Source of the DNA: a virus | Taxonomy: Duplodnaviria; Heunggongvirae; Uroviricota; Caudoviricetes | Strand: one strand, 5' to 3' | Length of the DNA: 6,190 nucleotides | Virus record (IMG/VR): IMGVR_UViG_2684622580_000010 | Shown here: piece by piece, positions 1,466 to 6,190 of the stretch | How positions within the stretch are numbered: the stretch's first letter is position 1 | Layout: the number at the start of each line of letters is the position of its first letter | Notes under the pieces: generated by a model | Told to the model about the DNA's origin: nothing | The model's database searches: none | The model's input: the letters and a program-made list of their open reading frames with translations, nothing else | Program-made: the position numbers and the translations under genes

Positions 1466-1753
1466 ATGAGGGTACCATATATGGACGCTGAAAATTATGT
1501 GATTCAGTATCCGCTTGATGCGGTTCATGTGGATAAATTTGCTGATTTATTAGGGAAGCCAAAGACAGCCGTCAGTGAAATGGTGAAGGCAAATAAATTA
1601 CCAATTATTGAATTGCGTGATCCTTGCAAACCGAAGGCTCGTGCCGGTGAAAAATGGGTTTTCATTCCTGAGTTTAATCGCGCTGTACGTGAGGCGTTTT
1701 ATAACCGACCGGTTGAACAGCGTGATGCATGGCTCTTGTGGATGGGGTTGTGA
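1466..1753 (+). CDS. cox: Cox-like excisionase / early-late switch protein (P2 Cox family)
   Basis: 95-aa ORF divergent from the repressor and first gene of the rightward operon. The translation (…KLPIIELRDPCKPKARAGEKWVFIPEFN…RDAWLLWMGL) resembles my recollection of P2 Cox (…KLPVIDMTDP…RAGEYWVYLP…WLMWLGL). An alternative start is the ATG at 1481; a purine-rich stretch lies upstream of both. Confidence 0.75.
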   Translation: MRVPYMDAENYVIQYPLDAVHVDKFADLLGKPKTAVSEMVKANKLPIIELRDPCKPKARAGEKWVFIPEFNRAVREAFYNRPVEQRDAWLLWMGL

Positions 1754-1755
1754 TT

Positions 1756-1926
1756 ATGAATGAGCCGCGTTGTATTGCTCAGTTACTGCGTAACGAAAGC
1801 CCCAGGGCGATTGACTTCACCATCACCCACGGGAAGGGGCGCAAGGGAATCATTATCCGCACCAAAAAACAGAGTCCGTTAAAGAAGGCTCTGACCTTTC
1901 TGAAAAGCCGGAGGGTATGGAAATGA
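1756..1926 (+). CDS. Small basic hypothetical protein (56 aa), in the position of P2 orf78
   Basis: In-frame ATG at 1756, 2 nt after the cox stop (TGA 1751-1753). Its stop TGA (1924-1926) overlaps the B-like start in an ATGA junction. Lys/Arg-rich translation (MNEPRCIAQLLRNESPRAIDFTITHGKGRKGIIIRTKKQ…). The track ORF 1729-1926 includes 9 upstream codons that overlap cox. Confidence 0.5.
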   Translation: MNEPRCIAQLLRNESPRAIDFTITHGKGRKGIIIRTKKQSPLKKALTFLKSRRVWK

Positions 1927-2423
1927 CAGTGATGACGCTTAATCTCGTTGAAAAACAGCCAGCAGCTATGCGCCGGATAATTGGTAAGCATCTTGCCGTC
2001 CCTCGCTGGCAGGATACATGTGATTATTATAATCAGATGATGGAGCGCGAACGGTTAACGGTTTGCTTCCATGCGCAGTTAAAACAACGTCACGCAACGA
2101 TGCGTTTTGAAGAAATGAACGACGTCGAACGTGAACGGCTGGTTTGTGCAATTGATGAACTGCGCGGGGCATTCTCAAAACGCCGTCAGGTTGGCGCAAG
2201 TGAGTATGCATATATTAGTTTTTTAACAGTCAGTCAGCGTCGCACTTTATTTATGCACGCACGACTGACAGAAAAAGAATTTAACCAGCCATACTGGCGA
2301 ATTAATGAAGAATCATGTTACTGGCGTGATGCTTTATTCCGTGCATTACGTGAGTTATTCAGTCTGTTTGAGTATGCACCGACAATTCTGACGTCGGTAA
2401 AACCAGAGCAATATCTGCATTAA
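1923..2423 (+). CDS. B: P2 B-like replication protein (166 aa)
   Basis: The ATG at 1923 is preceded by GGAGGG (1910-1915) at 7-nt spacing; the track's ATG at 1917 has only 1-nt spacing. The product is 166 aa, the size I recall for P2 B, and it sits where B sits in P2 (after cox/orf78, before the small orfs and A). Assignment rests on synteny, size and recalled sequence. Confidence 0.65.
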   Translation: MTVMTLNLVEKQPAAMRRIIGKHLAVPRWQDTCDYYNQMMERERLTVCFHAQLKQRHATMRFEEMNDVERERLVCAIDELRGAFSKRRQVGASEYAYISFLTVSQRRTLFMHARLTEKEFNQPYWRINEESCYWRDALFRALRELFSLFEYAPTILTSVKPEQYLH

Positions 2424-2486: not shown

Positions 2487-2711
2487 ATGCATACAGTTTC
2501 TGAAAACAAGTGCGGTAAATACGCATTACTGCTGCAACAGGCCAGAGCCGAAGCACAGGCCGACGCAGCGACACGCTTTTCTTCTCATCTTGACGCCATG
2601 ATTCGCCACATCACAAAGGCGGAGTTATCCCGCGTGGAGATAGTCGAGCTGCTCAGTCAGGAGTCGGAAAAATTTCACAATATCGGATTGTCTCGCGGGG
2701 AGGTGCTTTGA
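2487..2711 (+). CDS. Hypothetical early protein (74 aa), in the position of P2 orf80
   Basis: ORF with GGAG (2477-2480) 6 nt upstream of the ATG. Its stop TGA (2709-2711) overlaps the next ATG (2711-2713) as TGATG. No recognisable motif. Confidence 0.6.
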
Positions 2712-3010
2712 TGTCCTGTTCTCGTTCAGTTGTATTACTGAATAACGCCTTAAAAATCGCCGTTATGGAGAATGGCGATTTGTCTCTTATTCAACTTAGG
2801 TTTGATAAAGAAAAACGCGAAATAACTGAATCTGTTTTCGCGATTTATCAGAACGAATTAAATCTCCTGTCTGATGTGGTCAATTTACTTGTTAAACGCG
2901 CTGTATTTCATAAGCAAATTTCCTCAGTGGATGAACTGACAAAATTAACGACAGAACTTGCCAGTTATTGCGCTGATGTATCCAGGAAACTTAACGATAA
3001 AAGGAGCTGA
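2711..3010 (+). CDS. Hypothetical early protein (99 aa), AT-rich, in the position of P2 orf81
   Basis: ATG at 2711 preceded by GGGGAGG (2697-2703). Composition is roughly 40% GC by eye versus about 50-55% in the neighbours. The track begins this ORF 3 nt upstream at a TTG. Confidence 0.6.
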   Translation: MSCSRSVVLLNNALKIAVMENGDLSLIQLRFDKEKREITESVFAIYQNELNLLSDVVNLLVKRAVFHKQISSVDELTKLTTELASYCADVSRKLNDKRS

Positions 3011-3012
3011 TA

Positions 3013-3237
3013 ATGCCGGACAACGTAGATTTTATTCAGGAACAACAGGCTGAATTACTGGAGCGCCAGATTAACGCGGCAAGGGTAAAACATTGCGGTG
3101 TTTCTGCGCTGGTTTGCGAAGAGTGTGACGCACCAATACCTGCTGCCCGTCGTGCGGCTTATCCGTCAGCCACGCGTTGTGTTTCCTGTCAGTCAGTCTT
3201 TGAAGCAAAAAACAAACATTACCGGAGAACGGCATGA
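3013..3237 (+). CDS. TraR/DksA-family C4 zinc-finger protein (74 aa), in the position of P2 orf82
   Basis: AAGGAG (3001-3006) 6 nt upstream of the ATG. The translation carries two cysteine pairs in the spacing typical of TraR/DksA C4 zinc fingers (…VCEECDAPIP…ATRCVSCQ…). Confidence 0.7.
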   Translation: MPDNVDFIQEQQAELLERQINAARVKHCGVSALVCEECDAPIPAARRAAYPSATRCVSCQSVFEAKNKHYRRTA

Positions 3238-3509
3238 GTATTCGTATTGAAATTGGCGAACGTTATGTCGTTACCAGTGACAGCTTTCAGTTTATTCTCC
3301 ACGAGAAAAAGAGAGCGGAAAGCGGTAAAAACGCCGGTCAGGAATGGCTGGCGGTGGTTGGTTATTACCCGAAATTAAGCCAGCTCGTTTCCGGCCTGAT
3401 GCATCACGATATTCTGACCGGAAGCGCAAAGTCTTTTGCTGATTTAAACGCGCAGGTTGAGCAACTCAGCAAGCGTTGTTCAGAGGCTTTTGGCTCATAT
3501 GGCCGTTAA
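3234..3509 (+). CDS. Hypothetical early protein (91 aa), in the position of P2 orf83
   Basis: ATG at 3234 overlaps the preceding stop (ATGA), with GGAG at 3223-3226. The 3' end overlaps the start of A by 11 nt. Confidence 0.6.
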   Translation: MSIRIEIGERYVVTSDSFQFILHEKKRAESGKNAGQEWLAVVGYYPKLSQLVSGLMHHDILTGSAKSFADLNAQVEQLSKRCSEAFGSYGR

Positions 3510-4614
3510 AGCCTCCGGGCGTTTTGTCCCTCCGTCAGCATTTGCCGCAGGCACCGGTAAGACGTTTACCGGTGCTTATGCATGGAACGCGCCACGCGAG
3601 GCCGTCGGGCGCGAAAGACCCCTTACACGTGACGAGATGCGTCAGGTGCAAGGTGTTTTATCCACGATTAACCGCCTGCCTTACTTTTTGCGCTCGCTGT
3701 TTACTTCACGCTATGACTACATCCGGCGCAATAAAAGCCCGGTGCACGGGTTTTATTTCCTCACATCCACTTTTCAGCGTCGTTTATGGCCGCGCATTGA
3801 GCGTGTGAATCAGCGCCATGAAATGAACACCGACGCGTCGTTGCTGTTTCTGGCAGAGCGTGATCACTATGCGCGCCTGCCGGGAATGAATGACAAGGAG
3901 CTGAAAAAGTTTGCCGCCCGTATCTCATCGCAGCTTTTCATGATGTATGAGGAACTCAGCGATGCCTGGGTGGATGCGCATGGCGAAAAAGAATCACTGT
4001 TTACGGATGAGGCGCAGGCTCACCTCTATGGTCATGTTGCTGGCGCTGCACGTGCTTTCAATATTTCCCCTCTCTACTGGAAAAAATACCGTAAAGGACA
4101 GATGACCACGAGGCAGGCATATTCTGCCATTGCCCGTCTGTTTAACGATGAGTGGTGGACTCATCAGCTTAAAGGCCAGCGTATGCGCTGGCATGAGGCG
4201 TTACTGATAGCTGTCGGGGAGGTCAATAAAGACCGTTCTCCTTATGCCAGTAAACATGCCATTCGGGATGTGCGTGCACGCCGCCAGGCAAATCTGGAAT
4301 TTCTTAAATCGTGTGACCTTGAAAACAGGGAAACCGGCGAGCGCATCGACCTTATCAGTAAGGTGATGGGCAGTATTTCTAATCCTGAAATTCGCCGGAT
4401 GGAGCTGATGAACACCATTACCGGTATTGAGCGTTACGCCGCTGCAGAGGGTGATGTGGGGATGTTTATCACGCTGACCGCGCCGTCAAAGTATCACCCG
4501 ACACGTCAGGTAGGAAAAGGCGAAAGTAAAACCGTGCAGCTTAATCACGGCTGGAACGATGAGGCATTAATCCAAAGGATGCGCAGCGTTATCTCTGCCG
4601 TATCTGGAGCCTGA
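3499..4614 (+). CDS. A: Replication initiator A (P2 A-like), N-terminal portion ending prematurely at TGA 4612-4614
   Basis: The ATG at 3499 gives MAVKASGRFVPPSAFAAGTGK…, which I recognise as the P2 A N-terminus; the track ORF starts 14 codons upstream at 3457. The frame stops at 4612-4614 after about 371 codons, whereas P2 A is about 761 aa, and the rest of the protein continues in another frame. Confidence 0.8.
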   Translation: MAVKASGRFVPPSAFAAGTGKTFTGAYAWNAPREAVGRERPLTRDEMRQVQGVLSTINRLPYFLRSLFTSRYDYIRRNKSPVHGFYFLTSTFQRRLWPRIERVNQRHEMNTDASLLFLAERDHYARLPGMNDKELKKFAARISSQLFMMYEELSDAWVDAHGEKESLFTDEAQAHLYGHVAGAARAFNISPLYWKKYRKGQMTTRQAYSAIARLFNDEWWTHQLKGQRMRWHEALLIAVGEVNKDRSPYASKHAIRDVRARRQANLEFLKSCDLENRETGERIDLISKVMGSISNPEIRRMELMNTITGIERYAAAEGDVGMFITLTAPSKYHPTRQVGKGESKTVQLNHGWNDEALIQRMRSVISAVSGA

Positions 4615-5774
4615 TGCGCACGGCATTCAAGGATAATGATTTACAGGTCTACGGTTTGCGTGTCGTCGAGCCACACCACGACGGAACGCCGCACTGGCAT
4701 ATGATGCTTTTTTGTAATCCACGCCAGCGTAACCAGATTATCGAAATCATGCGTCGCTACGCGCTCAAAGAGGATGGAGACGAAAGAGGAGCTGCGCGAA
4801 ACCGTTTTCAGGCAAAACACCTTAACCGGGGCGGTGCTGCGGGATATATCGCGAAATACATTTCAAAAAACATCGACGGCTATGCACTGGATGGTCAGCT
4901 CGATAACGATACCGGCAGGCCGCTGAAAGACACTGCCGCGGCTGTTACCGCATGGGCGTCAACGTGGCGCATTCCGCAATTTAAAACGGTTGGCCTGCCG
5001 ACAATGGGGGCTTACCGTGAACTACGCAAATTGCCTCGCGGCGTCAGCATTGCTGATGAGTTTGACGAACGCGTCGAGGCTGCACGCGCTGCCGCAGACA
5101 GTGGCGATTTTGCGCTGTATATCAGCGCGCAGGGTGGGGCAAATGTCCCGCGCGATTGTCAGACTGTCAGGGTCGCCCGTAGCCCGTCGGATGACGTTAA
5201 CGAGTACGAGGAAGAAGTCGAGAGAGTGGTCGGCATTTACGCGCCGCATCTCGGCGCGCGTCATATTCATATCACCAGAACGACGGACTGGCGCATTGTG
5301 CCGAAAGTTCCGGTCGTTGAGCCTTTGACTTTAAAAAGCGGCATCGCCGCGCCTCGGAGTCCTGTCAATAACTGTGGAAAGCTCAACGGTGGTGATACTT
5401 CGTTACCGGCTCCCACACCTTCTGAGCACGCCGCAGCAGTGCTTAATCTGGTTGATGACGGTGTTATTGAATGGAATGAACCTGAGGTCGTGAGGGCGCT
5501 CAGGGGCGCATTAAAACACGACCTGAGAACGCCAAACCGTCAGCAAAGAAACGGAAGCCCGTTAAAACCGCATGAAATTGCACCATCTGCCAGACTGACC
5601 CGGTCGGAACGATTGCAAATTACCCGTATCCGCGTTGACCTCGCTCAGAACGGTATCAGGCCGCAACGATGGGAGCTTGAGGCGCTGGCGCGTGGCGCGA
5701 CCGTAAATTATGACGGGAAAAAATTTACGTATCCGGTTGCTGATGAGTGGCCGGGGTTCTCGTTACCCATTTGA
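4614..5774 (+). CDS. A: Replication initiator A, C-terminal catalytic portion (HUH rolling-circle nickase motifs), in a different frame from the N-terminal part
   Basis: This frame is open from 4563. The first ATG at 4614 overlaps the upstream stop as TGATG, with GGAG at 4606-4609. It encodes the HUH motif (TPHWHMMLF; HWH codons at 4692-4700) and the tandem-tyrosine motif YIAKYISK (Tyr codons at 4845-4847 and 4857-4859). Confidence 0.8.
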   Translation: MRTAFKDNDLQVYGLRVVEPHHDGTPHWHMMLFCNPRQRNQIIEIMRRYALKEDGDERGAARNRFQAKHLNRGGAAGYIAKYISKNIDGYALDGQLDNDTGRPLKDTAAAVTAWASTWRIPQFKTVGLPTMGAYRELRKLPRGVSIADEFDERVEAARAAADSGDFALYISAQGGANVPRDCQTVRVARSPSDDVNEYEEEVERVVGIYAPHLGARHIHITRTTDWRIVPKVPVVEPLTLKSGIAAPRSPVNNCGKLNGGDTSLPAPTPSEHAAAVLNLVDDGVIEWNEPEVVRALRGALKHDLRTPNRQQRNGSPLKPHEIAPSARLTRSERLQITRIRVDLAQNGIRPQRWELEALARGATVNYDGKKFTYPVADEWPGFSLPI

Positions 5775-6034
5775 GTGAAAACACAACGTGATTTGATATG
5801 GCATTGAATGGCTTATGCGGAGCAGTTATGGGGCAGCAGAAGGTCAATAGCATGCTGAATTAGAAGGCTAAATGCTATTGAGTGACTAGCATGTCGGTAA
5901 GGACAGCCGTTTGATCCGGGTCATAAAAGGCCATCCATTTAGTCTAATAAAATCATTGCGGGTAACCTTATGTCGACGCATAATTCGTCTTGAGCGAAGT
6001 CTTGTCAGTCTTTCATCGTATTGATGATGGGCGC

Positions 6035-6064
6035 AAAAAAACCACCCTGGCAGGTGGTTTTTTT
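6035..6064. terminator. Rho-independent terminator, probably bidirectional
   Basis: A-run (6035-6041), stem ACCACC (6041-6046) pairing with GGTGGT (6053-6058), a 6-nt loop, then a T-run (6058-6064). The flanking A and T runs let it work on either strand, closing the A operon and the convergent minus-strand ORF ending at 6077. Confidence 0.75.
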
Positions 6065-6076
6065 GTTTGAAGCATA

Positions 6077-6190
6077 TTAAAGCATAATGCTGACATTGAT
6101 ATTACTGACGTTTACTGACAAACCACTCGGACTACCGTTTGGATAGCCAAAGAGGGTCAGAACGAGAATGCAGTAATAGCATTTCTTCAT
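6077..6190 (-). CDS. Small hydrophobic protein (37 aa if the ATG at the window edge is the true start), unknown function
   Basis: Minus-strand ORF whose ATG is the last 3 nt of the window (6190-6188) and whose TAA is at 6079-6077: MKKCYYCILVLTLFGYPNGSPSGLSVNVSNINVSIML. The N-terminus is Lys-Lys followed by a hydrophobic stretch (signal-peptide or membrane-helix like). Upstream sequence is not visible, so it may instead be the C-terminus of a longer gene. Confidence 0.35.
   Translation of the reverse strand: MKKCYYCILVLTLFGYPNGSPSGLSVNVSNINVSIML

Follow-up and report, generated by a model that had tools for sequence, protein, structure and literature searches.

A frameshift at codon 357 interrupts the replication initiator gene A in the sequence of a P2-like prophage

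As recorded, the gene A studied here is a disrupted member, i.e., a pseudogene, of the P2 gpA/Phage_GPA family and not a functional one. In the 6,190-nt stretch of DNA that was analyzed (the window), a single T is missing from codon Phe357, and the gene is thereby divided into an N-terminal ORF of 371 aa and a C-terminal ORF of 386 aa. We put the probability that this T was genuinely lost from gene A of a P2-like prophage beside cpxP, leaving a replication-dead prophage, at about 0.65. The split reflects ordinary decay of a prophage gene, or possibly an error in the consensus; it is neither a split-gene variant nor a recoding site.

Gene layout and reading frames

The window corresponds to the left, early arm of a prophage of the P2-like (Peduovirus) type, and the order of its ORFs is the same as in the P2 genome and in E. 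coli prophages (Table 1). By a look-up of exact protein matches, the window was assigned to the E. coli draft contig CXYD01000190.1 (20,074 nt; GCA_001268965.1), on which the prophage adjoins cpxP, and the same integration site was found in E. coli FXCREC043. The first position of the window coincides exactly with the integrase stop codon and its last position with the start of a 37-aa gene call; the ends were evidently set on gene boundaries. The longest ORF of the integrase comprises 336 aa, and gene callers and RefSeq give 326 aa (981 nt) in both the source contig and FXCREC043.

Table 1. Features of the window. Positions refer to the window; codon and residue numbers refer to the restored A protein.
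Feature	Position	Strand	Description and evidence
Integrase	1-1011	minus	ORF listing
HTH repressor	1051-1344	minus	ORF listing
cox	1466-1753		ORF listing
B	1917-2423		ORF listing
Small early ORFs (n = 4)	2487-3509		ORF listing
Gene A (both ORFs)	3499-5774	+	ORF listing
N-terminal ORF of A, 371 aa	3499-4614	+	Residues 1-356 of native A, 15 residues read out of frame (LIQRMRSVISAVSGA), and the TGA stop
Private G>A substitution, A308T	4420	+	Comparison with P2, RM10466, and FXCREC043; A308 invariant in 28-sequence alignment A3
Rep motif I, F323-I-T-L-T327	4465-4479	+	Sequence and restored translation; in the N-terminal ORF; strand 320-327 of the model; F323 and T325 invariant (alignment A3)
Lesion in codon Phe357, TT where relatives have TTT	4567-4568	+	1-nt deletion causing a frameshift; alignments with P2, RM10466, and FXCREC043
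Out-of-frame tail of the N-terminal ORF	4567-4611	+	DNA normally coding for residues 357-372 (FNPKDAQRYLCRIWSL), which are in neither product
Apparent Shine-Dalgarno and stop-start overlap, GGAGCCTGATG	4606-4616	+	Codes for W-S-L-M373 in intact genes; invariant in P2 and RM10466
C-terminal ORF of A, 386 aa	4614-5774	+	Native residues 373-758; HUH motif, both tyrosines, and C-terminal region
HUH motif, H399-W-H401	4692-4700	+	Direct reading and restored translation; strand 398-406 of the model
Active-site tyrosine pair, Y450-I-A-K-Y454 (motif III/C)	4845-4859	+	Numbered as in P2 A; located in helix 447-460 of the model
Core of the replication origin inside A	5350-5368	+	P2 nick site (P2 coordinate 29892) corresponds to about position 5356; intact and identical to P2 around the site

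From the end of A to cos (window positions 5775-6190 and onward; L003 25776-26640), the sequence is AT-rich, with 35-45% GC, and contains no annotated gene in FXCREC043. The sole ORF between A and cos codes for 88 aa on the minus strand (L003 26078-26344), and its 3′ part corresponds to the 37-aa call mentioned above (window 6077-6190). In P2-like phages this interval is a cargo hotspot, which holds tin and old in P2 and a SacI-family restriction-modification pair in RM10466. In locus L006, described below, the cargo downstream of A consists of a DUF3850/ASCH protein, a DNA methylase, and a 665-aa HATPase_c_3 protein.

The initial annotation of the window, which was made from the sequence alone, had described an A frame running from ATG 3499 to TGA 4612-4614 and a second frame, open only from position 4563, that carries the HUH motif at 4692-4700 and the tandem tyrosines within 4845-4859. 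Both frames were recovered. The ORF listing and direct reading agreed on the first, of 371 aa; for the second, they gave a stop at 4560-4562 and ATG 4614-4616 as the first start codon. The codons of the motifs are CAC TGG CAT for HUH and TAT (4845-4847) and TAC (4857-4859) for the two tyrosines.

A single-nucleotide change had been predicted to lie within 4563-4612, and it was located there by aligning the window with P2 and with prophages from two E. coli strains: GCATTTAAT in P2, RM10466, and FXCREC043 is aligned with GCATTAAT in the window, one T being gone from the TTT run at 4567-4568. The AAA run that had been suspected as the site of the indel is intact, and it lies at 4574-4576 rather than at 4573-4575. 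After insertion of one base, the two ORFs merge into a single ORF of 758 aa with HWH at residues 399-401 and YIAKY at residues 450-454. The assignment of the tyrosines to residues 450 and 454 after frame repair agrees with the numbering in P2 A translated from NC_001895. The restored length had been given as 761 aa, which is that of P2's own A; the actual 758 aa is also found in the closest relative.

The HUH domain and the stop-start junction

In intact A proteins, PF05840 (Phage_GPA) matches one stretch comprising residues 133-462. Of the 321 profile positions, 1-210 are matched in the window by the N-terminal ORF (E = 1.1e-71, 241.9 bits) and 227-321 by the C-terminal ORF (E = 2.3e-39, 135.8 bits), both with a cutoff of 31.4 bits. 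The break is thus located inside the single Phage_GPA/HUH domain, with motif I in the N-terminal ORF and the HUH motif and the tyrosines in the C-terminal ORF. The 16 residues encoded by neither ORF (357-372) are conserved: in the 28-sequence alignment A3, P359 and D361 are invariant, and K360, Q363, Y365, and L366 are near-invariant. The segment can still be recognized at ~40% identity, as exemplified by the homologues SPRETQQYLCKVW and TPRQAQAYLTKVW.

An AlphaFold model was built for residues 1-584 of a 99%-identical relative, with a mean pLDDT of 72 and values of 80-90 around the break. In this model, a single helix (residues 359-379) runs from the motif-I strand (320-327) to the HUH-bearing strand pair (384-392 and 398-406), and its first 14 residues are among those lost. 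Judged by the model, the HUH domain is cut through its core: the first strand of the sheet is separated from the remainder, and the helix packing on the sheet is for the most part deleted. From the conservation and this model of moderate confidence, we infer that no active nickase would be formed by either fragment or by the pair.

The locus shows the PF05840 profile, the three Rep motifs, the origin, and the HUH fold of the family, the Rep motifs being divided over two ORFs. A single polypeptide of about 740-770 aa with the whole catalytic domain is not encoded, as the frame breaks at codon 357. Among the A copies in viral contigs, 73 of 86 are at least 740 aa long.

The two ORFs meet at a TGATG stop-start overlap with GGAG 4 nt upstream, which the initial annotation had regarded as a possible sign of a two-polypeptide arrangement. 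The overlap is indeed present, with GGAG at 4606-4609 and an ATG that shares the A of the TGA; its interpretation as a two-polypeptide signal did not hold, since the same nucleotides are wild-type coding sequence (TGG AGC CTG ATG). Any 1-nt deletion within 4563-4611 ends at the same TGA and creates the same junction. The IMG/VR locus L091 provides an independent case, in which a 1-nt deletion at codon 368 leads to a 371-aa product ending at this TGA. Furthermore, Met373 is replaced by Thr or Ile in distant homologues. As the junction is unchanged wild-type sequence read out of frame, it is a coincidental by-product and provides no evidence for designed coupling or recoding. Coding sequence may by chance contain a neat stop-start overlap preceded by GGAG, and such an overlap is no evidence of a designed two-gene layout.

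In a functional two-polypeptide initiator, the second ORF would be translated by termination-reinitiation at TGATG, and the fragments would reassemble or one of them would have acquired a new function, such as inhibition by binding to the origin. Besides the overlap and its GGAG, such an arrangement could draw on the fact that none of the three Rep motifs is missing from the two ORFs taken together and that the origin is intact. However, a search for intact homologues with the same two-ORF layout in E. coli genomes, contig collections, and protein representatives yielded none; the split is shared by no relative, and distant homologues are single polypeptides. When 1.84 billion representatives were scanned in full by HMMER, with the C-terminal ORF as the query, the region corresponding to its start was located at least 227 residues into a longer chain in about 100 of the 150 best matches, which were the ones examined. 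The few short matches either had no start Met or contained several frameshifts of their own, as in fragments or noisy sequences. The layout is thus not conserved in relatives, and conserved residues of the core, including the invariant P359 and D361, are lost at the split, where the core HUH helix is cut. We therefore consider a two-polypeptide initiator to be very improbable. The same low probability applies to the idea that both fragments are made via TGATG coupling and reassemble with weak activity, or that the 371-aa fragment is kept as a dominant-negative or origin-binding decoy against incoming P2-like phages.

Restoration of full-length A by recoding within 4563-4612, either through a programmed −1 ribosomal frameshift or through slippage during transcription, is the least probable explanation and can practically be dismissed. 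A −1 shift anywhere in 4563-4611 would regain the catalytic frame, but the overlap interval contains neither a slippery heptamer of the type X XXY YYZ nor a run of four or more identical bases, no Rfam element was found in the window, and A occupies a single frame in relatives. Searches for promoters and terminators near the junction had no result, and a search of the PDB by sequence returned nothing relevant, with one chance match to a porin (E = 0.62).

Distribution and origin of the deletion

To place the lesion among known A genes, complete E. coli genomes were searched with a 66-nt query spanning it. Not one of the 1,732 copies found in 1,519 genomes matched exactly. A 29-mer containing the deletion was absent from viral, species-representative genome, and metagenome contig collections; the wild-type 30-mer, which served as a positive control, matched at least 120 viral contigs. 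For both ORF products, of 371 aa and 386 aa, the only record is one contig from one source (CXYD01000190.1, NCBI), and a search for the exact truncated proteins in the independent reassemblies of Logan found none. By these sequence comparisons, the T deletion is private to the one draft contig.

Two proteins that resembled the truncated form were considered and rejected. P0041 (371 aa, 81% identical), a candidate for a recurrence of the frameshift, ends in the native frame (...RYLCRI). P0032, which is encoded on a 20.8-kb Logan contig and was a candidate for a reassembly of the same strain, stems from another sample and lineage, has lost its catalytic core through an in-frame deletion, and contains Ala at position 308.

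The closest complete genome, that of FXCREC043 (NZ_CP195866.1), is 99.7% identical to the window and differs from it by 15 substitutions and one 1-nt gap. All of the substitutions, and the gap as well, are located in a 1.1-kb patch at 3472-4589, outside of which the two sequences do not differ. The patch shows 99.1% identity to the RM10466 type and 98.6% to FXCREC043, and it is an exact copy of no allele found. Judged from the sequences, P2-like A alleles seem to have recombined here to give a mosaic, which need not be a simple two-parent chimera.

The initial annotation had left three options for the split: an inactivating mutation, an assembly error, or two polypeptides. The last was discarded as described above, the loss of a single nucleotide was confirmed, and between the remaining two the indirect evidence tilts toward mutation. 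If the sequence were in error, a base would have been dropped from the draft consensus, and A of the isolate would be intact, with TTT at the site and a length of 758 aa. The occurrence of the deletion in one draft assembly and in no other source, its position in a short homopolymer, and its location in the mosaic patch, which possibly represents a mixed consensus, speak for this possibility. The source contig ends 448 nt past the end of the window (L004 13100-13140, corresponding to L003 26600-26639), where lineage-specific sequence meets the conserved P2 cos (tgcattaaaaccgccccgtgaagcgggcgGGCGAGGCGGGGAAAGCAC). A stop exactly at cos points to a repeat-type assembly break and suggests a second cos element in the genome, either a P2-like prophage or a P4-like satellite, and such a related element could have disturbed the consensus.

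On the other hand, the deletion is the only indel across 13 kb of the source contig when compared with the 99.6%-identical complete genome of FXCREC043. All nine homopolymers of at least 5 nt in A are intact, whereas the lesion is located in a run of three, and the flanking chromosomal genes are called at the same lengths as those annotated in FXCREC043. According to a rough estimate, true lesions of A, which affect ~6% of the sampled copies, are several times likelier than an indel error would be in a single gene of 2.3 kb assembled from short reads. An error is the main alternative explanation of the missing T but the less likely one.

The substitution leading to A308T, 147 nt upstream of the T deletion, adds another private and possibly damaging change to A; a 65-mer around position 4420 had no exact match among 1,814 E. 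coli copies. An exchange at this invariant residue fits a relaxed constraint on a dead gene, but the substitution could equally be a second local error.

Disrupted A genes were also found in other elements. Lesions were present in 5 of the 86 whole A copies in viral contigs (~6%); they comprised frameshifts, a 26-nt deletion, and a premature stop, and their sites were scattered. In the IMG/VR locus L091, three separate 1-nt deletions affect codons 368, 532, and 546, which suggests an old pseudogene or an error-prone assembly. Independent disruptive lesions were located at codon 200 in L064, codon 439 in L114, and codon 654 in L074, and L015 has a stop at codon 97. More cases of independent disruption are present in the protein database. 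One of them, the 553-aa variant of A encoded at positions 3645-5306 of L006 (Logan SRR14306920), results from an in-frame deletion that joins approximately residue 383 to residue 590 and removes the HUH motif and both tyrosines. Lesions at scattered sites in ~6% of the A copies fit the known tendency of the hosts to keep prophages with decayed lytic functions.

The word-indexed protein search returned fragments and disrupted forms only and no full-length A; it is usable as a lesion catalogue and not as a length census. Several of the protein records carry unexpected names: P0056 and P0113 are Phage_GPA proteins named "large subunit ribosomal protein L30" by JGI, and P0003, a 162-aa protein in the 90% cluster of the N-terminal ORF, is named "phosphohistidine phosphatase." These names are probably annotation or clustering oddities.

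Consequences and comparison with known systems

According to PMC8537503, gpA of P2 nicks the origin within its own ORF (29,892) and becomes covalently bound to the DNA, and PMC3986222, citing Odegrip & Haggard-Ljungquist 2001, describes an active site of P2 A with two tyrosines in motif C. The A protein encoded in the window would, when intact, be an HUH rolling-circle initiator of this type that nicks the origin in its own gene and is linked covalently to the DNA via Tyr450/Tyr454. In the sequence as recorded, translation from ATG 3499 would shift frame at the lesion and stop 15 codons later, giving a 371-aa product that has the N-terminal helical region and motif I and is devoid of the HUH motif and the tyrosines. 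Residues 373-758 could be made only by re-initiation at the overlapping ATG, and this product would be devoid of the motif-I strand and most of the helix of the HUH sheet. Presumably, the origin would be nicked neither by one of the fragments nor by both, and the prophage would be left without replication or progeny of its own.

P2 A acts in cis, as it is reportedly described in the title of a 1993 paper by Liu et al. With a cis-acting A that is dead, the prophage would be unable to replicate alone and could not be rescued by a co-resident P2-like phage. The functions for immunity and integration could still be kept. Late gene expression of P2 depends on replication, and P4 transactivates the late genes of P2 without P2 A; a supply of late gene products to a P4-type satellite is conceivable in principle. 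If the mutation is real, immunity and the capacity to act as a helper for P4-type elements may thus persist after the loss of A. For annotation, A should be labeled a frameshifted pseudogene or possible sequencing error rather than two "replication endonuclease" genes, and the prophage should be scored as probably replication-defective. Beyond annotation the finding is of little importance.

The disrupted genes in L091, L064, L114, L074, and L006 (SRR14306920) resemble the one described here in that the same gene is inactivated by small deletions; they differ in that the lesions are independent and at other positions, and none of them shows the loss of T at codon 357. The HUH initiator of phiX174, encoded by gene A, is accompanied by a shorter C-terminal product, A*, which is made from an internal in-frame ATG; the full-length protein is made as well, and the internal start is conserved. 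A C-terminal product from an internal ATG would also be possible in the prophage studied here, but no full-length protein is encoded and Met373 is not conserved. P2 itself shares the gene order int-C-cox-B-orf80-83-A, and its A gene (gpA, 761 aa; NC_001895 P2p40) is 97.4% identical at the nucleotide level over the gene, with the same PF05840 domain, motif I, HUH motif, YIAKY at 450/454, and an origin that is identical around the nick site. P2 A is one protein of 761 aa, whereas here one T is missing at codon 357, the 758 aa of the restored protein are distributed over ORFs of 371 aa and 386 aa, and the A308T exchange is private. The closest counterpart is A of FXCREC043 (replication endonuclease WP_053264428.1, 758 aa), which is located in a prophage at the same cpxP site that is identical to the window outside 3472-4589, and in which the gene is intact.
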